Source of the DNA: Gammaproteobacteria bacterium
GTDB lineage: Bacteria; Pseudomonadota; Gammaproteobacteria; G965209235
NCBI GenBank assembly: GCA_965209235.1
Contig: OZ242382.1
Location: 1,327,010 to 1,391,009, forward strand
Length of the DNA: 64,000 nucleotides
Reading direction: 5' to 3'
In this document: positions 5,537 through 54,294 of the stretch, in pieces
Position numbering within the stretch: the first letter of the stretch is position 1
How the letters are laid out: the number at the start of each line of letters is the position of its first letter
Notes under the pieces: model-generated
The model's database searches: none
What the model was told of the DNA's origin: nothing
Seen by the model: the letters and a program-made list of their open reading frames with translations, nothing else
Translations under genes and position numbers: made by a program

Positions 5537-6003
5537 CGAAATACGATCCGTACCGCCTCTGGACATCTTTCTTCGGATCGGGCTACGCGCCTTTTGCACC
5601 CGGCACTGCGGGGTCGTTGGCGTCGGTCCCGCTTGGCATCTTGATTGGGATGGTGCCCGTCCCATTGGGTCTGGTGGTTTTAGCGTTGTATGGCGCAATG
5701 AGCCTGTACTGCGTCTCGCGAGTCAGCGCTGCGCTCGCCGAGCACGACTCAAAGGAAATCGTGTGCGACGAGGTGTTGGGTGTGCTGATGCTCGGCGTGG
5801 CACTCGGGGAACCTCGGTTGTCGCTCGACTATGTGCTGGGCTGGGTGTTCGCCATGACGATGTTTCGCGTTTTTGATGCGCTCAAGCCGCAACCGATCAA
5901 AGCTATCGACACGCATGTGAAGGGTGCGTGGGGGGTCATGTTGGACGATGTAGCTGCCGCAGCCATCCCGTGTGCGGCGATTATTGTTTTCACTTTGCCA
6001 TGA
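5533..6003 (+). CDS. pgpA: phosphatidylglycerophosphatase A
   Basis: 156-aa membrane protein with 'FFGSGYAPFAPGTAGSL' and 'DEVLG...FRVFDALKP'. It sits in the thiL-pgpA synteny and has an ATGA overlap with thiL. Confidence 0.85.
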   Translation: MTKYDPYRLWTSFFGSGYAPFAPGTAGSLASVPLGILIGMVPVPLGLVVLALYGAMSLYCVSRVSAALAEHDSKEIVCDEVLGVLMLGVALGEPRLSLDYVLGWVFAMTMFRVFDALKPQPIKAIDTHVKGAWGVMLDDVAAAAIPCAAIIVFTLP

Positions 6004-6033
6004 CCGAGGCCGTTGTCAAGATAATTCATTAAC

Positions 6034-6639
6034 GTGATTACATCACCACTAATGAACCGAGCAGCGTCAGCCACATTGCCACTCCGAGGCCATGTCTTCG
6101 ATATCCATGTCTTCACAGATGGTGAACAGGAGCACGTGGCTCTTTGCCTCGGTGGTATCGAAGCCACCGATTCGTCGAAAGCACCCTTAGTGCGCGTGCA
6201 CTCTAAGTGCCTCACGGGCGACGCATTCGGTAGCACGAAATGCGATTGCCAAGGCCAACTGAATGCGTCGCTCGCGCGCATTGCCGAGGAACAGTGCGGC
6301 GTTTTAGTCTATTTAGACCAAGAAGGGCGCGGGATTGGTCTCGTTGAGAAGATTAAGGCGTATGCGCTTCAAGATCAGGGGATGGATACGGATGAAGCCA
6401 ACGTGGCACTGGGACACAAAGTTGATGAACGGACGTTTGCAGTGGCAGGCAACATCTTGAAGGCGCTCAAGGTGTCTCGAGTCCGTCTTCTGACCAACAA
6501 CCCGTCCAAAGTGAGAGATGTGGAGAGTGCTGGGATTACGGTCGAGTCGCGAGAAGAGCTGTGGGTCGAGATCGGAACCGAAGAAGGTAAGAAATACGCG
6601 GAAATTAAACGTTCACGAATGGGGCATTTGGGCGCGTAA
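6034..6639 (+). CDS. ribA: GTP cyclohydrolase II
   Basis: Motifs 'VRVHSKCLTGDAFGSTKCDCQGQL' and 'EGRGIGLVEKIKAYALQDQG'; C-terminal 'MGHL'. Confidence 0.9.
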   Translation: MITSPLMNRAASATLPLRGHVFDIHVFTDGEQEHVALCLGGIEATDSSKAPLVRVHSKCLTGDAFGSTKCDCQGQLNASLARIAEEQCGVLVYLDQEGRGIGLVEKIKAYALQDQGMDTDEANVALGHKVDERTFAVAGNILKALKVSRVRLLTNNPSKVRDVESAGITVESREELWVEIGTEEGKKYAEIKRSRMGHLGA

Positions 6640-8506
6640 TCGCTTGCTGAAAGGCTTCGGTGATTGCGGTTTCATCGAGGCCTGATTGCTTGAGCTGAAA
6701 GTCGCGCGACCCGTGCGGGATGATCGCGTCAGGGATGCCGAAACGGATCAGGCGCGGAACAGCATGCCCTTGGCCTGCAAGGTCAGCATAAAACTCAAGA
6801 ACAGCGGACCCAGCGCCTCCGCTAGCGATGCCGTCCTCCAGTGTTCCAACGATGGGGCACGTTCCTGCGATCTCTGTCAGCAGACTTTCGTCCAGTGGTT
6901 TCACGAATCGCATGTCTACCAACCCTGAACCAGTCGCTTCTGCGACTTTATCCGCCGTTTGAAGCAGCGTTCCAAAGTTCAAAAGACAGGGTTGTCCCGG
7001 GCTAGGCATGCGAACGACGCGCGCTTCGCCTTGCTTCATAGGGGTGACAGCACCTGTTTGGGCATGCGCCTCTCCTCTTGGATAACGAACGGCAATGACG
7101 CCGTCTCCATCCACCGCATATTCCAACGCTTGAATGAGTTCTTCGCGAGATGAGGGGGCCAAAATCTCGATGTCTGGCAAGACACGAAGCGTCGCCATGT
7201 CGTAGAGTCCGTGGTGCGTCGGGCCATCCTCGCCAACCAAACCACCGCGATCGATGGCAAGGACCAAGCGTGCCCGTTGAAGGGCCGCGTCATGAACCAC
7301 TTGATCGTACGCCCGTTGCATGAATGTGGAGTAGATTGCCACGATCGGGGTGCGGCCCCCGATGCCCATAGCTGCCCCCAACGTGACGGCATGCTGTTCA
7401 GCAATGGCGACATCATGAGCGCGAGTGGGATGCTTCTGAAAGTACTCAAGCAGACCAGATCCCTCACACATCGCAGGTGTGATGACTTCAATAGTAGGAT
7501 CGTGATTTGCGCGTTCGGTTACCCATGAACCAAAGACCGATGAGTAGGTCGGCTGGGTTACCGGTTTGCTCTTTTGAGCTTTGGGAATCGCGTGGTGCGT
7601 GATGCGCTCTGCTTCCGCGGACGCAAACCCCTTGCCCTTATGGGTGATGCAATGCACAAGCCACGGGCCCGATCGTTCATGAACCGCTCGCATGGTCTGC
7701 ATGACTTGTGCCACGTCATGGCCATCGATGGGACCGACATAGCGAATGCCCATCTCTTCAAACAGCGCGCCAGGCACGGTGTGTTTGCGCACAGTTCGTC
7801 CCACTTGACGGGCGAAGTGCAGTCCCCGAGGGAGGTGCTCAAGCACGTGTTTACCGCCGGAGCGCAGGGTCATGTAAGACTTACTGGCCCAGATTCGCGC
7901 AAAGTAGTTGGTTAATGCGCCGATGTTGTGGCTAATCGACATATCGTTGTCGTTCAGGACGATCACCATGGGCAGTTTGACGTGACCGATGTGATTGAGG
8001 GCTTCGAAAGCCATACCGGCGGTGATGCCTCCGTCGCCGATGATGGCGCAGACGCGGCGCTCTTCTTTGGCAGCGCGCGCGGCATACGCCAACCCAATGG
8101 CGGCACTAATAGAGGTCGAGGAGTGGCCCGCGCCAAATACGTCGTATTCGCTTTCCTCTCGCAGCAAGAAGGGTGCGGGCCCGTCTGCCGACCGGATGGA
8201 TGGCATGGCCTCTCTGCGCCCTGTTAAGACTTTGTGAGGGTAGGCTTGATGCCCGACATCCCAGACCAACAGATCGTTGGGCGTGTCGAAGGTGGCATGT
8301 AACGCCACCGTCAGTTCGACGGTCCCAAGGTTACTACCGAAGTGGCCGCCTGACCGATTAGTTGACCACAGTAAAAAGGCCCGTAACTCATCGCAAAGCA
8401 CTTCTAAATGGTCGTCATCCAACGCGCGCAAGTCATGTGGGCTGTTGATCGTATCCAAAAGTGGTGTGTGCGGGCGCTCGTGCGGGAGCTCGTGATAGAT
8501 CTTCAT
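6605..8506 (-). CDS. dxs: 1-deoxy-D-xylulose-5-phosphate synthase
   Basis: N-terminal 'LLDTINSPHDLR' and ThDP motif 'IIGDGGITAGMAFEALN'. The start is set at the internal ATG at 8506, which forms a TAATG 1-nt overlap with the ispA stop. Confidence 0.92.
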   Translation of the reverse strand: MKIYHELPHERPHTPLLDTINSPHDLRALDDDHLEVLCDELRAFLLWSTNRSGGHFGSNLGTVELTVALHATFDTPNDLLVWDVGHQAYPHKVLTGRREAMPSIRSADGPAPFLLREESEYDVFGAGHSSTSISAAIGLAYAARAAKEERRVCAIIGDGGITAGMAFEALNHIGHVKLPMVIVLNDNDMSISHNIGALTNYFARIWASKSYMTLRSGGKHVLEHLPRGLHFARQVGRTVRKHTVPGALFEEMGIRYVGPIDGHDVAQVMQTMRAVHERSGPWLVHCITHKGKGFASAEAERITHHAIPKAQKSKPVTQPTYSSVFGSWVTERANHDPTIEVITPAMCEGSGLLEYFQKHPTRAHDVAIAEQHAVTLGAAMGIGGRTPIVAIYSTFMQRAYDQVVHDAALQRARLVLAIDRGGLVGEDGPTHHGLYDMATLRVLPDIEILAPSSREELIQALEYAVDGDGVIAVRYPRGEAHAQTGAVTPMKQGEARVVRMPSPGQPCLLNFGTLLQTADKVAEATGSGLVDMRFVKPLDESLLTEIAGTCPIVGTLEDGIASGGAGSAVLEFYADLAGQGHAVPRLIRFGIPDAIIPHGSRDFQLKQSGLDETAITEAFQQAITRPNAPFVNV

Positions 8507-17471: not shown

Positions 17472-18107
17472 ATGCTCGTTGAGCACACTATGTTTTCTCG
17501 GGGTTTTGACGTGCATTCGGTTTTTCTGTTGGGGTGCAAGGCGTACAGCCTCTTCGTTGGTATTGTCCCGCAAGTGTTGTTGCGGGCGTATCTCGTTCCG
17601 GTCTTCTATATGGCTGGAAGCACGAAGCTCGATCACATTGATGCTGTTATTCAGCAATTTGGCGAAGGGTACGGCTTCCCGTTTCCTGCGTTGATGGCGT
17701 ACATGGCAGCACTCACTGAGTACTGCGGTGCCATCATGTTGGCGTTGGGATTTGGCGTGCGCCTTATTTGTATTCCCTTGGCAATTACGATGGTGGTTGC
17801 GGCGTTGTCCGTGCACATTGATCACGGTTGGTTGGCCATTGCATCAGGCTCCGATCCGGAAGTTGCGGAACGTCTCCGTGCCGCTAACGGGATCCTGCGT
17901 GAGAACGCCGTGAACTTCAATTGGCTCGTAGAGAAAGGGCGCTTTGTGATTTTGAATAACGGGATTCAGTTTGCCGCCACGTACTTCATCATGTGCTTGG
18001 CATTGATTGGACTGGGCGCTGGACGGTACTTGAGCGTGGATCACTACGTGATGCCTATCATCTGCCGAAAGGTGAAGTCCATCTTCAACATTGAATGTGG
18101 CGCTTAA
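17472..18107 (+). CDS. DoxX-family integral membrane protein
   Basis: Multi-helix hydrophobic protein with 'LRAYLVPVFYMAGSTKL' and 'ILNNGIQFAATYFIMCLALIGLGAGRYLSVD', typical of DoxX. The start may be the ATG at 17490. Confidence 0.65.
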   Translation: MLVEHTMFSRGFDVHSVFLLGCKAYSLFVGIVPQVLLRAYLVPVFYMAGSTKLDHIDAVIQQFGEGYGFPFPALMAYMAALTEYCGAIMLALGFGVRLICIPLAITMVVAALSVHIDHGWLAIASGSDPEVAERLRAANGILRENAVNFNWLVEKGRFVILNNGIQFAATYFIMCLALIGLGAGRYLSVDHYVMPIICRKVKSIFNIECGA

Positions 18108-18139: not shown

Positions 18140-19687
18140 ATGTTTGACGATACGACCATGCTCGATATCTTCCGCTACGTACAAGGGGCGTTAGATTTCC
18201 TGTCTGTTCTGTTTGTGTTTGCGGTTGGCTTGGCGATCATGTCCATCCCGGTGTTGTACGTCCTTGACCGTGCTCAATCGCAGCAAGCCATTCGACGCAA
18301 CTACCCTGTGGTGGGGCGGTTTCGGTATTACTTCGAAACACTGGGTGAGTTCTTTCGCCAGTATTTCTTTGCGATGGATCGCGAAGAGATGCCTTTCAAC
18401 CGCGCTGAGCGCTCGTGGATCTATAAGGCCGCTAAGAATAAAGACACGACCCAGCCTTTCGGTTCAACGCACACGATCCGGTCGATCGGTAGCAACATCT
18501 TTGCCAACTCTATGTATCCCGTGCAAGAGCAAGACTCAAATGCACCAGCTGAAGTGACGATTGGCCCGGACACCATTCAACCGTACACAACGCGTTCGAT
18601 TTACAACGTCTCCGGTATGAGCTACGGCGCGTTGTCCAAGCCGGCCGTGCTCGCGCTGTCCGCAGGAGCACGGATGGCTGGCTCCTGGCAAAACACTGGT
18701 GAAGGCGGCATGTCGCCATACCACGTGGAAGGTGGAGCAGACATCGTTTTCCAGATTGGAACCGGAAAGTTCGGTGTTCGTAATGAAGACGGCACGTTGT
18801 CGGCGAAGCGGCTCAAGCAAGTCGCTAAGGGTGAAAACGTGCGGATGTTTGAGATCAAGTTAAGCCAAGGTGCCAAGCCCGGTAAAGGCGGGATTCTTCC
18901 GGCAGCGAAAGTCACGGATGAGATCGCGCGGATTCGTGCGATCGAACCGGGATCCGACTGCTACAGCCCAAACCGCCACACTGAGATTCGTAACATCAAC
19001 GACATGCTCGAGATGATCGCCAGAGTGAGAGATATCACCGGGAAGCCCGTAGGCATTAAGTTTGTGATGGGCCAACCCACAGATATCGATGATTTCTGTG
19101 AAGCAGTGATCGCCCGTGGCTGGGAGTATGCTCCTGACTTCATCACTCTTGATGGCGGAGAAGGCGGCACAGGTGCTGCGCCTTTGACACTGATTGACAA
19201 CGTTGGTATGCCAGTGACAGAAAGCCTGCCCTACCTGATTGACTCCTTGGATATTGCTGGTCTTCGGCCACGGATCAAGGTGGCTGTTGCCGGCAAGCTG
19301 GTCAACCCTGTTGGAGTGGCATGGGCGCTTTGCATCGGCGCCGATTTCGTCAACTCGGCCCGCGGGTTTATGTTCGCACTCGGATGTATTCAAGCGCTGC
19401 GTTGTCACGAGAACACGTGCCCCACCGGTATTACGACGCACAACAAACGCCTGCAAAAAGGTTTGAATCCTGAGTCGAAAGCTGTCAGAGTGGCAAACTA
19501 CATCCAAAACATGACGAAGGAAGTGGAAGTGATTGCGCGGTCATGCGGGGTTGATAACCCGCGGTCGTTGCGTCGGCACCACGTCCGGCGGGTGAAAGAA
19601 GACGGCGTTTCCGTCGCTTGGTCCTCACTCTATCAGCCAATCAAATCGAATGGTGACGAACATCGTGTCGGCAGCATCGGTTCGTGA
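18140..19687 (+). CDS. FMN-binding glutamate synthase-domain family protein, N-terminal membrane anchor
   Basis: Motifs 'SGMSYGALS', 'FEIKLSQGAKPGKGGILP' and 'ITLDGGEGGTGAAP' (GltB FMN-domain signature); N-terminal TM helix. Confidence 0.8.
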   Translation: MFDDTTMLDIFRYVQGALDFLSVLFVFAVGLAIMSIPVLYVLDRAQSQQAIRRNYPVVGRFRYYFETLGEFFRQYFFAMDREEMPFNRAERSWIYKAAKNKDTTQPFGSTHTIRSIGSNIFANSMYPVQEQDSNAPAEVTIGPDTIQPYTTRSIYNVSGMSYGALSKPAVLALSAGARMAGSWQNTGEGGMSPYHVEGGADIVFQIGTGKFGVRNEDGTLSAKRLKQVAKGENVRMFEIKLSQGAKPGKGGILPAAKVTDEIARIRAIEPGSDCYSPNRHTEIRNINDMLEMIARVRDITGKPVGIKFVMGQPTDIDDFCEAVIARGWEYAPDFITLDGGEGGTGAAPLTLIDNVGMPVTESLPYLIDSLDIAGLRPRIKVAVAGKLVNPVGVAWALCIGADFVNSARGFMFALGCIQALRCHENTCPTGITTHNKRLQKGLNPESKAVRVANYIQNMTKEVEVIARSCGVDNPRSLRRHHVRRVKEDGVSVAWSSLYQPIKSNGDEHRVGSIGS

Positions 19688-19703: not shown

Positions 19704-19757
19704 ACGCAACCGTTAAGAATAGCGGTATCCCTGAAGGCTAGCTGGAGGTTTTATACC

Positions 19758-20234
19758 ATGAGCCACAAGAACGATCAACAGAAATCCATGCGTACCCCGG
19801 CTGTTGCAGCAGCTTTGGTTGGTGCAAGTGCATTTCTCGGAATTTCCAACGTCAGTGCAGATGTGCTATTCGGTTTCGAAAAGTCCACCTACGGTGAGTT
19901 TGAACATCATCTGAGTGATGATAAGGACGACGCTGCCAAGCCATCTGGCGAGGAAGGTGAAGGAAGCTGCGGCGAAGGCAGTTGCGGCGAAGAATCCACA
20001 TCCGAAGGCAGTTGCGGCGAAGGAAGCTGTGGTGAGTCTGGTGAGAAAGCCGCGCATGGCGAAGGTGACTGCGGTGAAGGCAGTTGCGGCGAAGGATCCA
20101 CATCTGAAGGCAGCTGCGGCGAAGGAAGCTGTGGTGAGTCCGGCGAGAAAGCAGCCCATGGCGAAGGCAGTTGCGGTGAAGGTGAGGAAGCTTCATCCGG
20201 TGAAGGTTCCTGTGGCGAAGGCTCCTGCGGCTGA
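19758..20234 (+). CDS. secreted EG[S/D]CG-repeat precursor protein (HvfA / 'EGKCG bufferin'-like RiPP substrate)
   Basis: GGAGG lies 9 nt upstream of the ATG. The signal peptide is 'MSHKNDQQKSMRTPAVAAALVGASAFLGISNVSA', followed by an acidic linker. There are 11 Cys, all within E-G-[S/D]-C-G, and the protein ends on EGSCG-stop. It sits immediately upstream of the DUF692 and DUF2063 genes. Confidence 0.85.
   Translation: MSHKNDQQKSMRTPAVAAALVGASAFLGISNVSADVLFGFEKSTYGEFEHHLSDDKDDAAKPSGEEGEGSCGEGSCGEESTSEGSCGEGSCGESGEKAAHGEGDCGEGSCGEGSTSEGSCGEGSCGESGEKAAHGEGSCGEGEEASSGEGSCGEGSCG
19992..20195 (+). repeat. 2 x 102-bp in-frame tandem duplication within the precursor gene
   Basis: 19992-20093 and 20094-20195 align codon for codon. 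Over codons 2-25 the 7 differences are all third-position synonymous changes. Confidence 0.9.
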
Positions 20235-20279: not shown

Positions 20280-21113
20280 ATGCTTGATATAGGAGTGAGT
20301 GGTGCAGGCTTAGGTCTGCGCCGCTCGCTCCTTTCTCATTATGAGACCCTCGAATGCCGCAAAGATGGCATTCAATTCTTAGAGTGCGCCCCCGAGAACT
20401 GGATAGATGTCGGGGGGGGCTGGCGCCGTCGGTTTGAAGCAATTGCTGACCGCTTTCCGTTGGTTTGTCACGGGTTGTCGCTGTCTCTGGGAACTCCAGC
20501 TCAAATAGACGTTGAACACGTCAAGAAAGTGGGTGCCTTTCTGAACGAGTTTGGAGTGCGCTTTTACTCTGAGCATCTTTCATACACGGGAGATGAAGCG
20601 TCTGTTTTCGAACTCTGCCCGATTCCATTTACCGAAGACGGCGTCAGACAGACGGCAGATAACATTAAGTTAGTTCAAGATGTTCTTGGCCGCCAGATAG
20701 GCGTCGAGAATGTGTCTTACTACACCACAACAGACGGCTCCATGCCAGAGCATGAGTTTGTGAATCAGGTTCTTGAAGCGGCGGACTGCTTGCTATTGCT
20801 TGATGTGAATAACTTAGAGTGCAATCGGATCAATCACGGTACGAGACCGCAGGAGCTTCTGCAGTCTGTTCCGCATGAGCGGGTTGCCTATCTGCACATC
20901 GCGGGTCACAAACCGGTCGGGGACATGGTGGTGGATACCCATGGTGAAGCAGTGATCGATGAGGTTTGGTCGATCCTTGATCAAACCTACGGAACGTTTG
21001 GAGCAGTCCCCACGTTATTGGAGCGAGACTCCAATTTTCCAGCGTTCGAAGAACTGCTGGCAGAGATCTCGAATATCAACCAGATCATGGGTCAGCATTC
21101 TCTCGCTGCTTAA
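20280..21113 (+). CDS. DUF692 / MNIO-family (multinuclear non-heme iron oxidative) enzyme, MbnB/BufB/HvfB-like
   Basis: Family landmarks in order: 'GLGLRR', 'CHGLSLSLG', 'YSEHLSY', 'GVENVSYY', 'LLLDVNNLECN', 'LHIAGH', 'VDTHG', 'TLLERD'. Confidence 0.88.
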   Translation: MLDIGVSGAGLGLRRSLLSHYETLECRKDGIQFLECAPENWIDVGGGWRRRFEAIADRFPLVCHGLSLSLGTPAQIDVEHVKKVGAFLNEFGVRFYSEHLSYTGDEASVFELCPIPFTEDGVRQTADNIKLVQDVLGRQIGVENVSYYTTTDGSMPEHEFVNQVLEAADCLLLLDVNNLECNRINHGTRPQELLQSVPHERVAYLHIAGHKPVGDMVVDTHGEAVIDEVWSILDQTYGTFGAVPTLLERDSNFPAFEELLAEISNINQIMGQHSLAA

Positions 21114-21150: not shown

Positions 21151-21975
21151 ATGAGTGACAAACATCGCGAAGACGCGAATATGACTGAGACTCAGCAATG
21201 GCAGCGATGCTTCCTGTCCTGGATACGCACCGGCGAGGGGGCGATTCCGAAGGGTATGTCGCGTGCTCGTATTCAGGTGTACCGAAACTTGGTGCTCAAC
21301 GGCTACACCTCTTTCTTCTCGAACCTTTTTCCAGCTGCGGCGTTCTTGGTGGGGCAAGAAGCCATGCAGACGCTGATTGCACAGTTCTTTTCTCGCTACC
21401 GCACGCGCGAAACACTGTTTCATGAGCTTGGGCGAGATGTTGTTGCGTTTGCACACGAGATTGACCCAATCGGAAAATTTAGTTCAGCTGGGTGGCGATC
21501 TGCTGTCTCCGTGATGGAGTTTGAGTGGCTGCTCTTCTGGACAAGAAAAGCAAAGGATATCGAACGACGTGATTTCATCGGACTCAGCGACGATGCCTGT
21601 CACTTTGCTGAACACCTTGCGGTGTATCGCTTTGCATGTCGCGTGGTTCAGCTGCGCGAATTAGCGTTGAAAGCGCGAGACGAAAATAATCGACGTCATC
21701 CTGATATCATCAAGATGATGAAGCGACAAGACGTTCAGCATGTCGCCATATGGCGTCAGGAGAGTGAGGAACCGCGTTTTCGGACACTGACCCCGGCGAT
21801 GGCATTTTCTGTACACAAGTTACTTGATGGTGGTGGCATTTCAGCGGCCTCGGTTGTCAAGGAGTTGGCGGAGCGGTCGGGACAGCCTTACGAGCATGTC
21901 CTACAACATGTCCGTCAAGGGTTGACCAACTTCAAGAACGCTGGCGCGTGGGCCGCACATCAGGAAGAGTCATGA
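21151..21975 (+). CDS. DUF2063-type partner protein (MbnC-analog; BufC/HvfC-like RiPP recognition/maturation subunit)
   Basis: N-terminal DUF2063-like pattern 'QQWQRCFLSWIR...RIQVYRNLVLNGYTSFFSNLFPAAAFLVGQEAMQTLIAQFF'. Obligate-neighbour position after DUF692. The start may be the ATG at 21181. Confidence 0.75.
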   Translation: MSDKHREDANMTETQQWQRCFLSWIRTGEGAIPKGMSRARIQVYRNLVLNGYTSFFSNLFPAAAFLVGQEAMQTLIAQFFSRYRTRETLFHELGRDVVAFAHEIDPIGKFSSAGWRSAVSVMEFEWLLFWTRKAKDIERRDFIGLSDDACHFAEHLAVYRFACRVVQLRELALKARDENNRRHPDIIKMMKRQDVQHVAIWRQESEEPRFRTLTPAMAFSVHKLLDGGGISAASVVKELAERSGQPYEHVLQHVRQGLTNFKNAGAWAAHQEES

Positions 21976-22583
21976 CACAGCATCTGGAGATTGGACCTCA
22001 AACGGTTCAGACAGAGGCACTTTGGGTGCGGTGGCACAAGTGGTTGGATGATGCCAATCGAGCTGGTGCGGTACTGCCAAATGCAATGTGCCTATCGACG
22101 GTCAGTTCCGATGGCAAACCCTCTAGTCGGATGGTGCTGATGAAGCACTCTCAAGCCGGCACGATCACTTTCTTTACAGACCGGACCAGCCGCAAAGCTG
22201 CAGACTTGGCGTCGAATGGCCATGTGAGCATGACATGGTGGTGGCCGCAGGTTGGACGTAGCGTGCGCATGGAAGGATGGTGTGAGTTTACCGACACAGT
22301 GACTGATGACGACTATTTCAGCAGTCGACCTGCAATTAGCCAGGCTTCCGCCATGGCGTCTCATCAATCGCAACCCATTGGCTCAATTGACGACCTCAAA
22401 CAACAGCGTGATGCGCTCTTAAAGCGAGGCAATCTCTCCCGTCCGGATCGATGGGGCGGTTACGTAGTGGCAATTCAAACGACCGAACTATGGCAGGATC
22501 AAGAAGGCCGTCTTCATCAGAGAGAGGAGTACGGTCGAGTGCCAGGTACCGATACGTGGACACGGCGATTGCTTTCCCCTTGA
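21972..22583 (+). CDS. pdxH: pyridoxamine 5'-phosphate oxidase
   Basis: Motifs 'PNAMCLSTVSSDGKPSSRMVLMK', 'WGGYVV...ELWQDQEGRLHQRE' and C-terminal 'RLLSP'. The ATG at 21972 makes an ATGA overlap with the upstream stop. Confidence 0.85.
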   Translation: MTQHLEIGPQTVQTEALWVRWHKWLDDANRAGAVLPNAMCLSTVSSDGKPSSRMVLMKHSQAGTITFFTDRTSRKAADLASNGHVSMTWWWPQVGRSVRMEGWCEFTDTVTDDDYFSSRPAISQASAMASHQSQPIGSIDDLKQQRDALLKRGNLSRPDRWGGYVVAIQTTELWQDQEGRLHQREEYGRVPGTDTWTRRLLSP

Positions 22584-25859: not shown

Positions 25860-25936
25860 GGTGGGCGTAGCTCAATAGGCAGAGCTCTGGTTTGTGGTAC
25901 CAGCGGTTGTGGGTTCAAGTCCCACCGTCCACCCCA
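25860..25936 (+). tRNA. tRNA-His (GUG)
   Basis: Hand-folded cloverleaf. G-1 pairs with discriminator C. Acceptor GTGGGCG/CGTCCAC, anticodon loop TTGTGGT, T-loop GTGGG-TTCAAGT-CCCAC, encoded CCA. Confidence 0.9.
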
Positions 25937-33093: not shown

Positions 33094-34746
33094 ATGACCC
33101 CCACGGATCGTCCGAGGGGGCACCGGTACATCTTTGTGACGGGTGGCGTTGTGTCGTCGCTTGGGAAAGGTGTGGTTTCGGCATCGCTCGGCTCGCTGTT
33201 GAAGTCAGCGGATCGAAAGATCACGATCATCAAACTGGACCCGTACATCAACGTCGACCCGGGCACGATGAACCCGTTCGAACATGGCGAGGTGTTTGTG
33301 ACGGCTGACGGTGCTGAGACGGACCTTGATCTTGGTCACTACGAACGGTTTACCGGCATCGAAACAGGATCTGGGAATAACATCACAACTGGGTCCATTT
33401 ACAAGCACGTCATCGAGAAAGAACGCGAAGGGGCGTTTCTGGGGCAGACGGTGCAGGTTATTCCGCACATCACCAATGAGATCTGTCGGCGCGTCGAAGA
33501 GATTGCCTCGCAGTTTGACATCACGATTGTGGAAGTAGGCGGAACGGTTGGAGACATTGAGTCGTTGCCGTTTCTCGAGGCGGTGCGACAACTTCGCCTC
33601 GCGCATGAGCGCCATGAGACGGCTAGTATTCACGTCTCGCTGGCACCTCGATTAGCGGCCACTGGTGAGATCAAAACCAAACCCACGCAACACTCTGTTC
33701 GAACGTTGGCGTCGTTGGGTATCAACCCTGACTTCATCGTGTGTCGGTCTGTTGAGCCACTCACCGAAAGTATCTCGGACAAGATTGCTAACTTCTGTAA
33801 CGTTAAACGACAGCACGTGTTTAGCTCGTACAACGTTCCTAGCATTTACGAGGTCCCGATCGTATTGAGCGAACAAGGGATCGTCGAGAGCGTGACGCAG
33901 CACCTACGAATTGACGCACAAGAGCCTAACACTGGCATCTGGCAGAACTTGATGGCTCGGCGCGCTCAGGCGGTCCAATCGAGCCCGATCCGCGTGGCCT
34001 TCATTGGCAAGTACATCCATAACCTTGACGCGTATGCGTCGCTTGTGCAATCGTTGCATCACTCAGGCTGGGCCGAGGGTGTTGACATTCAGGTTGAGCA
34101 GCATGATGGCGAATCTGTTGAGACCGAAGAGACGCGACGTGCCATTGAGGAAGCTGATGCGGTGATGGTGCCGGGTGGGTTTGGAAAACGGGGATCTCAA
34201 GGCATGATTCAAGCCATTCAGATCGCCCGAGAGCAACGCAAGCCCTATCTTGGGATTTGCTACGGCATGCATCTTGCGGCTGTTGAGGTCGCAAGGAATG
34301 TCGGCGGACTGCACGATGCATCTTCGACGGAAATTGAGCGCGAGACTGCCGTGCCGCTGGTGTCATTGGTTGAAGAGTGGGAAAGCGCTGACGGCAGCAA
34401 GCGAGTGGGTGAGACTGCTCGACGAGGTGCCACCATGCGCCTAGGTGCCTATCCGACAAACCTGCAACCTGGCACCAAGATCGCAGAGAGCTACGGCGAC
34501 GTCGCCATCGTGGAGAGGCATCGCCATCGATATGAGTTCAATCCCAAGTACGAAGGAGCATTAGCCAAAGCCGGACTTGTGCTATCAGGGCGCTCGCCAG
34601 ATGGCATTGTCGAAGCTATTGAACTGAAAGATCATCCCTTTTTCGTGGGGGTACAGTTTCATCCAGAATTTAAGTCGACGCCCGACGCCGGGCATCCACT
34701 CATTCGGGCATTTATACGAGCTGCGCGACAAGAATCTGAGGCTTAG
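33094..34746 (+). CDS. pyrG: CTP synthase
   Basis: Motifs 'IFVTGGVVSSLGKG' and 'LGICYGMH'. Confidence 0.95.
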   Translation: MTPTDRPRGHRYIFVTGGVVSSLGKGVVSASLGSLLKSADRKITIIKLDPYINVDPGTMNPFEHGEVFVTADGAETDLDLGHYERFTGIETGSGNNITTGSIYKHVIEKEREGAFLGQTVQVIPHITNEICRRVEEIASQFDITIVEVGGTVGDIESLPFLEAVRQLRLAHERHETASIHVSLAPRLAATGEIKTKPTQHSVRTLASLGINPDFIVCRSVEPLTESISDKIANFCNVKRQHVFSSYNVPSIYEVPIVLSEQGIVESVTQHLRIDAQEPNTGIWQNLMARRAQAVQSSPIRVAFIGKYIHNLDAYASLVQSLHHSGWAEGVDIQVEQHDGESVETEETRRAIEEADAVMVPGGFGKRGSQGMIQAIQIAREQRKPYLGICYGMHLAAVEVARNVGGLHDASSTEIERETAVPLVSLVEEWESADGSKRVGETARRGATMRLGAYPTNLQPGTKIAESYGDVAIVERHRHRYEFNPKYEGALAKAGLVLSGRSPDGIVEAIELKDHPFFVGVQFHPEFKSTPDAGHPLIRAFIRAARQESEA

Positions 34747-54219: not shown

Positions 54220-54294
54220 TGGCTGGGGTGGTAGGACTCGAACCCACGAATGGCGGGACCAAAACCCGCTGCCTTACCACTTGGCTACACCCCA
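54220..54294 (-). tRNA. tRNA-Gln (UUG)
   Basis: The reverse complement folds as a cloverleaf. Acceptor TGGGGTG/CACCCCA, anticodon stem GCGGG/CCCGC with loop TTTTGGT, T-loop TTCGAGT, discriminator G plus CCA. It closely resembles E. coli tRNA-Gln. Confidence 0.9.

Follow-up and report, generated by a model that had tools for sequence, protein, structure and literature searches.

In nontypeable Haemophilus influenzae, the HvfA protein consists of a signal peptide and three AEGKCGEGKCG repeats, and HvfB together with HvfC modifies each repeat Cys of HvfA with a mass change of -4 Da, about one Cu(I) being bound per pair of modifications (PMC11252979). Precursors with this motif make up the Buf_EGKCG/oxazolin family, which counts some 2,000 members, most of them in Pseudomonadota, and whose gene clusters combine a precursor, a multinuclear non-haem iron oxidative enzyme (MNIO), a DUF2063 protein and a DoxX protein; the role proposed for the family is copper sequestration or buffering in connection with copper stress (PMC12452194). 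Here we analyzed a gene, hvfA, found at 19758..20234 in a stretch of 64,000 nucleotides (the window) of contig OZ242382.1, positions 1,327,010 to 1,391,009 of the forward strand, from a Gammaproteobacteria bacterium (assembly GCA_965209235.1). Its 11 Cys motifs contain no Lys. By analogy with the systems above, hvfA very probably encodes the precursor of an hvf/buf-type cluster for a ribosomally made peptide that is modified after translation (RiPP), that is, a secreted Cys-rich peptide that would be modified by the MNIO and would bind copper.

The modification was first assigned as oxazolone/thioamide and has now been reassigned to 5-thiooxazole for oxazolin (bioRxiv 10.64898/2026.06.05.730506). 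The reassignment also covers fontiphorin, gonophorin, bulbicupramide and the bufferins, and the NCBIfam names retain the old chemistry. A 5-thiooxazole shows as -4 Da per Cys, absorbance near 305 nm and a thiol open to alkylation, and about one Cu(I) per pair of modified Cys is described for fontiphorin and bulbicupramide as for oxazolin. As to the residue before the Cys (position 3 of the motif), the gonophorin precursor NgoA of Neisseria gonorrhoeae, the substrate of NgoBC, has one QGSCG, two EGSCG and four EGKCG motifs, and all 7 of its Cys residues are modified (bioRxiv 10.1101/2025.11.18.689057). The fontiphorin enzyme pair FonBC was reported to accept Ala, Arg and Thr at position 3 and not Phe, Glu being severely impairing, and in FonB Glu1 is recognized by Arg15/Arg16, Asp249 serves as catalytic base, and Phe250 acts as the gate for position 3 (bioRxiv 10.1101/2025.11.18.689057).

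The hvfA precursor and its cysteine motifs

The gene and its parts are as follows.

19758..20234, + strand: hvfA-type precursor gene, 158 aa plus stop (translation; NF050137; homologues)
19744..19748, + strand: Shine-Dalgarno-like GGAGG (sequence reading)
19758..19859, + strand: predicted Sec-type signal peptide, residues 1-34 (MSHKNDQQKSMRTPAVAAALVGASAFLGISNVSA, followed by DV; sequence reading)
19860..19958, + strand: leader/linker, residues 35-67 (DVLFGFEKSTYGEFEHHLSDDKDDAAKPSGEEG), acidic and His-containing (alignment with homologues)
19959..20231, + strand: core, 11 x E-G-[S/D]-C-G as five doublets plus a singleton, with short acidic spacers (translation; repeat analysis)
20061..20075, + strand: single EGDCG motif, Asp104 and Cys105 (translation)
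19959..20182, + strand: 102-bp (34-aa) unit in tandem, 2.2 copies with 87% identity (score 350 in Tandem Repeats Finder)

The frame is open from 19650 and stops at the TGA at 20232..20234. The likely start is the ATG at 19758, which was preferred because the GGAGG lies 9 nt upstream of it. Read from the sequence, the predicted signal peptide shows a basic n-region and a hydrophobic h-region, with V-S-A before D as its cleavage motif, and the signal peptides of 50 homologues align with the N-terminus of the precursor, in agreement with the Sec signal of HvfA and Buf_EGKCG precursors.

The core spans residues 68-158 (91 aa) and contains ten EGSCG motifs and one EGDCG, the last motif forming the C-terminal end of the protein. 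The core string written down in a first-pass annotation, made from the letters of the window, is the exact translation of 19959..20231 on the + strand. That annotation had also placed all 11 Cys residues in EG[S/D]CG, as five doublets and a singleton, with the protein ending on a motif, and translation gave the same picture: the Cys residues are 71, 76, 86, 91, 105, 110, 120, 125, 139, 152 and 157, and the singleton occupies residues 136-140. EGKCG is indeed the family consensus, and here, as the annotation had noted, its Lys is replaced in every motif (0/11 with Lys; 10 Ser, 1 Asp), so that a literal 'Lys-Cys' pattern is absent. The only basic residues of the core are two Lys, again as first described; there is no Arg, and the net charge is about -20 over the 91 aa of the core and about -27 over the 124-aa mature protein. 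With Ser or Asp in place of Lys in all 11 motifs, the product is therefore very acidic. Histidine had been assigned only to the EHH linker and to two AAHG spacers, which holds for the mature protein, and a further His was found at residue 3 of the signal peptide. Across the six frames of the 64-kb window, hvfA (with 11) was the only open reading frame (ORF) having at least two G-x-C-G motifs.

We also considered how far the motif is a product of DNA repetition. Tandem Repeats Finder detected 15-nt sub-repeats within the core in addition to the 102-bp unit. The Ser codons of the motifs are AGC (four), AGT (four) and TCC (two), and the same mix occurs in four related genes. AGC/AGT and TCC belong to two Ser codon families that a single synonymous change cannot link. 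Because both families encode the motif Ser, this residue seems to be selected at the protein level, and the repeated motif appears, from its codons, to be kept at the protein level beyond mere DNA repetition.

The precursor matched NF050137, the doublet-repeat model of the 'HvfA family' (KCGExKCG_twice), with 54.7 bits (cut-off 19.5; E = 5.7e-15), in 5 stretches, one per doublet. The repeated E-G-x-C-G doublets that characterize the family are thus present (11 motifs, 5 doublets). The score against NF050188, the equivalog model of H. influenzae HvfA, was 32.2 bits vs. a cut-off of 95. On these profile scores, the precursor is a member of the HvfA family/captophorin class, not an orthologue of HvfA, and lies strictly outside the 'Lys-Cys' subgroup. 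Since position 3 of the motif varies across the family, Lys is its consensus residue and not a requirement.

Serine at motif position 3 among the relatives

Relatives of the precursor were collected from 5.8 billion proteins at E<=1e-3, which gave 181 homologues sharing a signal peptide, a leader F...G motif and EGxCG doublets. They include proteins from Wenzhouxiangellaceae, from metagenome-assembled genomes of other Gammaproteobacteria and from Tara Oceans assemblies, and two of them are already annotated 'HvfA family'. Motifs were counted in the best 120 of the 181. Every Cys stood in S-C-G in 42/120 of these, and 66/120 had no K-C at all; position 3 was occupied by S 706 times, K 163, A 48, T 14, R 8 and N 7, and many relatives mix S, K and A within a single precursor. 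Asp at this position occurred in 0 of about 960 motifs of the best 120 homologues; elsewhere it was seen only in one protein (P0318), which lacks a signal peptide and is apparently unrelated. Other all-Ser cores are equally acidic, and six all-Ser precursors lie in canonical A-B-C-X clusters (L082, L083, L087, L089, L171 and L173). When 1.84 billion cluster representatives were searched separately by HMMER, the precursor found 125 matches, mostly Lys-type representatives with a few eukaryotic low-complexity false positives, a make-up that renders this search unfit for counting Ser-type members.

The first-pass annotation had implied that the Ser variant is a distinct, uncharacterized motif class. 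These counts do not bear this out: EGSCG is common, and position 3 forms a continuum of K, S, A, T, N and R. The annotation had allowed that EGSCG cores might prove common and already characterized; common they are, and they are characterized in part, through the modified Ser motifs of NgoA and the tolerance of FonBC. Its further suggestion, that Ser could offer an extra O-nucleophile next to each modified Cys, found no support in any result of our analysis. Judged by the sequences of its relatives, the Ser-for-Lys motif is common natural variation of a known family and no new system. The Lys-free subclass is catalogued in sequence databases, and its precedent from experiment is at the level of single motifs. 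The NCBI family model already catches Ser-type cores, which occur commonly in Gammaproteobacteria of marine and saline settings. What is particular to this locus, as read from its sequence, is the combination of no motif Lys with a very acidic core, the one EGDCG, and a unique Phe to Ser change at the gatekeeper of the MNIO, described below.

Some relatives differ in their surroundings. The MNIOs nearest to HvfB of the window (L001-L007, L010, L017; ~5900..7600) stand in the order hrpA-MNIO-HvfC and have no adjoining Cys-rich ORF or precursor, and in two further loci (L087/L088) the hrpA-MNIO-HvfC context has an all-Ser precursor in between. Orphan all-Ser EGSCG precursors, with no MNIO near, were seen in L081 (6001..6384), in L085/L086 (6001..6381) and in L172 (3560..3985), and orphan all-Ser precursors lie directly 3' of genes for an extracytoplasmic function (ECF) sigma factor and a DUF3379 anti-sigma-like protein. 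This position suggests that the orphan precursors would be expressed under stress regulation and modified in trans. One 78-aa EG[K/S]CG precursor (P0336) has a lipobox-like LAGC ending its signal peptide, which fits the NedA-type RiPP-lipoproteins (PMC13056109).

The probable modifying enzymes and the neighboring genes

The locus consists of five same-strand ORFs separated by short gaps, in the order hvfX, a Glu_synthase-domain gene, hvfA, hvfB and hvfC. The parts that concern the modification are listed here.

20280..21113, + strand: hvfB, MNIO, DUF692 (PF05114, 302 bits)
21027..21032, + strand: codons of Asp250 (equivalent of the FonB catalytic base Asp249) and Ser251 (equivalent of the FonB gatekeeper Phe250), by alignment position
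21151..21975, + strand: hvfC, DUF2063/RRE partner, PME type 1 (PF09836, 58.6 bits; PF22106, 28.8 bits; both above gathering scores)

Profiles confirmed what the first-pass annotation had stated, that the precursor core adjoins a DUF692/MNIO enzyme. HvfB scored 346 bits with the HvfB model and 238 bits with the BufB model, its nearest solved structure is 3BWW (E = 5e-65), and it is 41% identical to H. influenzae HvfB and 44% to NgoB. It keeps 83/97 family-conserved positions, including the His/Asp/Glu positions, Asp250 and Arg14-Arg15, so that an MNIO of the HvfB/BufB subfamily with putative metal ligands and the catalytic Asp does stand next to the precursor. The product of hvfC has two Pfam domains, DUF2063 and NGO1945_C; similarity to HvfC or NgoC at the PDB or BLAST level was not found.

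The residue after the catalytic Asp is exceptional. HvfB reads ERD-S-NFP at a place where ERD-F was found in 80/80 of the nearest genome loci and in 117/119 of the nearest database homologues, and Phe is thus replaced by Ser251. The equivalence with FonB was assigned by position and is shifted by one residue, as is that of the Arg pair. The codon of Ser251 is TCC (21030..21032), for which a single transition, TTC to TCC, suffices. In FonB, Phe250 contacts Lys3 and Gly5 of the substrate, and its mutation shifts the residues accepted at position 3 (bioRxiv 10.1101/2025.11.18.689057). FonB F250D processes a substrate with Phe at position 3, and F250A and F250D are both still active (bioRxiv 10.1101/2025.11.18.689057). 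Since these two variants remain active, Ser251 is no argument against the activity of HvfB.

We asked whether the change of Lys to Ser in the substrate co-varies with the change of Phe to Ser in the MNIO. This idea was rejected, as six independent all-Ser loci keep ERD-F. NgoB has the gatekeeper Phe and yet modifies S-C-G motifs. Because the MNIOs associated with all-Ser precursors share the ERD-F signature with the Lys-type enzymes, a special enzyme is not needed for Ser motifs. From its position, Ser251 could possibly be tied to the unique EGDCG motif. In a rough neighbor-joining tree without support values, in which taxonomy is a confounder and the Lys-type sample is mostly Lysobacterales, the Ser-associated MNIOs fell into two groups outside the Lys-type group; about 13 alignment columns, equally confounded by taxonomy, separate Ser- and Lys-associated MNIOs, and HvfB shares 3 of them.

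The simplest reading of the oddities of HvfB is a general divergence of the lineage, because the whole genome is an outlier. The best match of HvfB in the 5.8-billion-protein database is at most about 56% identical, genome and metagenome collections gave no close relatives of the cluster (MNIO at most about 53% identical), and PyrG (CTP synthase, 33094..34746) is at most 53% identical to anything in the same protein database. By these identities, the genome is that of a deep or poorly sampled lineage.

The other features of the locus are these.

17472..18107, + strand: hvfX, DoxX-family membrane protein (NF050144 'HvfX family Cu-binding RiPP maturation protein', 177.8 bits, cut-off 80; Pfam DoxX, 63.1 bits)
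18140..19687, + strand: Glu_synthase-domain (FMN-type) protein, 515 aa, with an N-terminal hydrophobic segment (PF01645, 313 bits)
20291..20332, + strand: RNA hairpin of 19 bp followed by a U-rich tract (terminator-like scan; predicted fold)

A DoxX gene, typical of the known clusters, is therefore part of the locus, and one non-conserved gene parts it from hvfA. This Glu_synthase-domain gene lies on the same strand, 32 nt from hvfX and 70 nt from hvfA, and a tblastn search found a counterpart of it in 0 of more than 170 related loci, suggesting that it probably does not belong to the conserved parts of the system. Read from its GTG start, the pdxH gene (pyridoxamine 5'-phosphate oxidase, 21948..22583) shares its first 28 nt with the end of hvfC, and the two may be co-transcribed. 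Neither the Glu_synthase-like gene nor pdxH occurred in the more than 170 related loci, and both were rejected as conserved members of the cluster.

Located 57 nt past the hvfA stop, the hairpin falls within codons 1 to 18 of hvfB; its predicted fold has -54.1 kcal/mol and z = -7.3. At the matching place, 6/6 folded Ser-type loci and several Lys-type loci also have strong hairpins. It is possible that this predicted structure is an attenuator or an mRNA stabilizer that would set the ratio of precursor to enzyme.

The flanking genes are housekeeping genes (NAD synthase, rRNA pseudouridine synthase, pdxH, HU, PpiD, FabI, trigger factor, ClpX, Lon and PyrG), and no copper regulator was seen among the flanking genes of the window. 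The window also holds genes for tRNA-His (GTG) at 25861..25936 and tRNA-Gln (TTG) at 54220..54294; an Rfam scan of the window returned no further family at the gathering threshold besides these two tRNAs.

Alternative readings and comparison with known systems

The gene, its motifs, the make-up of the cluster, the profile membership and the abundance of the Ser type were all observed here, and by homology with oxazolin, fontiphorin, gonophorin and bulbicupramide we infer the course of modification, export and copper binding as follows. HvfC would bind the leader in the cytoplasm and offer the repeats to the iron enzyme HvfB, which, with O2, would make a 5-thiooxazole from each motif Cys and the carbonyl of the residue before it (Ser in this case). 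The predicted mass shift is -4 Da per Cys, or -44 Da in total, and -40 Da if the Cys of EGDCG is skipped. The Sec signal peptide would carry the modified protein to the periplasm, where the two thiooxazole thiolates of a doublet would chelate Cu(I) for buffering or sequestration, at about 1 Cu per doublet and about 5 Cu per molecule. In this scheme the Ser at position 3 is a natural and frequent state of a variable site that acidifies the product and would leave the chemistry unaltered.

Several observations weigh against this reading. HvfB scored 345.8 bits against NF003818 'HvfB family', under the equivalog cut-off of 360, and HvfC stayed below the equivalog cut-off of NF050145 'HvfC family' (78.8 vs. 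142 bits). At 14 positions with a conservation of 95% or more, HvfB differs from 119 relatives, and one of these positions is the gatekeeper, with Ser for Phe. The leader holds the family motif in a degenerate form, LF-x4-S-x2-G-E-F vs. [PL]F-x4-L-x2-G-[YF]-M: in the alignment of homologues F38 is invariant and G46 nearly so, Ser43 takes the place of an almost invariant Leu, and GEF that of GYM. AlphaFold2, supplied with a 51-sequence alignment, predicted the precursor to be disordered (pLDDT, its per-residue confidence score, 47; no secondary structure), and the beta-helix modeled for a mid-size Lys-type member was not reproduced by this model. By analogy with FonBC, Cys105 of the EGDCG motif may stay unmodified, because an acidic residue at position 3 severely impairs these enzymes, and the singleton Cys139 may be poorly processed, because FonBC processed a substrate of two repeats and left one with a single repeat unmodified. 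An experimental study of an all-Ser member was not found in the literature searched. The enzyme deviations, the scores under the equivalog cut-offs and the degenerate leader would also suit an acidic Cys/Gly-rich periplasmic protein that is not modified, or no longer so, on which the MNIO or its partner is inactive and which binds metal through plain thiolates or forms disulfides. All putative metal-ligand and catalytic positions of the MNIO are kept, however, no ORF is broken, the genes form a compact operon, and E-G-x-C-G is perfect 11 times with varied synonymous codons, as expected if a recognition motif is under selection. We consider the unmodified protein very unlikely.

It is quite unlikely, too, that the Lys-free, hyper-acidic core with its Phe251Ser enzyme represents a functionally distinct subclass, in which Ser takes part in a different modification or in which metal selectivity, affinity or localization differ from those of EGKCG proteins. 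The motifs without Lys (0/11), the core charge of -20 and the selection on Ser at the protein level would be in keeping with such a subclass, as would the unique Ser251 of HvfB at the residue that governs position-3 selectivity and the placement of all-Ser-associated MNIOs outside the Lys-type group. But the six other all-Ser lineages keep ERD-F, NgoB with its Phe still modifies S-C-G, and S, K and A are mixed in single precursors; taxonomy confounds the tree, which also lacks support values, and in a genome as divergent as this one (PyrG <=53%) the oddities of HvfB may be lineage drift. A last possibility was that there is no gene at all, only a GC-rich tandem DNA repeat that is open by chance in several frames. 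Several overlapping ORFs do cross the hvfA region on both strands, and the exact precursor protein, with either start, is not in a collection of 15 billion proteins that does contain HvfB and HvfC of the same contig; hvfA was apparently never called in the source assembly. This explanation is effectively refuted: the Shine-Dalgarno sequence and the signal peptide are found in the hvfA frame only, the E value with NF050137 is 5.7e-15, many homologues are similarly placed relative to MNIO genes, and synonymous variation goes along with amino-acid conservation. We thus retain the MNIO-modified, copper-binding precursor as the preferred reading.

A more far-reaching proposal can be drawn from the sequences, in which hyper-acidic cores of the all-Ser/Asp type, without motif Lys, would form a functional branch of their own among the thiooxazole metallophores. 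Such a branch would differ in how strongly or selectively it binds metal, in its aggregation or in how it is retained in the periplasm, an adaptation to marine or saline settings being one example, and Phe251Ser would have co-evolved in this lineage so that the enzyme takes small or acidic residues before the modified Cys, the Asp of EGDCG among them. We regard this proposal as unlikely. The interest of the gene lies elsewhere. The family is an active research topic, given the H. influenzae virulence factor, the link to copper stress and the recent reassignment to 5-thiooxazole, and hvfA is a natural substrate that lacks the name-giving 'Lys-Cys' residue at all 11 sites. It adds an Asp site, of a residue class that severely impairs FonBC, and an enzyme naturally substituted at its gatekeeper. 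It is thus a natural test case for how an MNIO reads the residue before Cys and for the effect of side-chain charge on copper binding and aggregation, a precursor useful for questions of specificity and unsurprising to specialists.

Among the known systems, the bufferins Buf1 (DUF2282) and Buf2 and the methanobactins share with this locus the MNIO-modified Cys and copper binding, both inferred here, and the enzymes of the bufferins fall within the same subfamily of MNIOs. Unlike the bufferins, the precursor was matched by only the two HvfA-family models among those of NCBIfam and Pfam, and its core has no C-K motif. The methanobactin enzyme MbnB, which makes oxazolone/thioamide, is distant from HvfB (45.6 bits). 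The Buf_EGKCG/oxazolin family (PMC12452194) and the bulbicupramide precursor MmrA (PMC12538549) are closer, with a signal peptide, an MNIO with a PME-type-1 partner, and DoxX. The Buf_EGKCG repeats are about 17 residues long with two motifs each, which is similar to the periods of 15 and 19 residues within the 34-aa unit here. Published descriptions of Buf_EGKCG count Lys as part of the motif, of which there is none here.

FonA/FonBC of Fontimonas thermophila (fontiphorin, captophorin class) resembles the locus in its EGKCG-type repeats, and the enzyme residues have their equivalents in Arg14, Arg15 and Asp250. Unlike in FonB, the equivalent of Phe250 is Ser251, and the position-3 panel of FonBC, as far as it is described, includes neither Ser nor Asp. 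The hvfXABC locus of H. influenzae has the same gene set with hvfX ahead of hvfA, a Sec signal and C-terminal E-G-x-C-G doublets. In HvfA, Lys stands in each of the six motifs, and two additional N-terminal Cys residues form a disulfide, whereas the precursor described here has 11 motifs, no motif Lys and no Cys outside the motifs; the locus further differs from hvfXABC in the extra gene between hvfX and hvfA and in Ser instead of Phe after the catalytic Asp. Neither Ser-only cores nor EGSCG doublets were described in the literature and supplements searched. NgoA mixes Ser and Lys, has singleton Ser motifs and Lys-rich spacers and is basic, whereas the motifs here are all Ser/Asp, mostly in doublets, in a very acidic protein. 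NgoA nonetheless has G-S-C-G motifs like those found here, and it is the direct precedent for Ser before a modified Cys.

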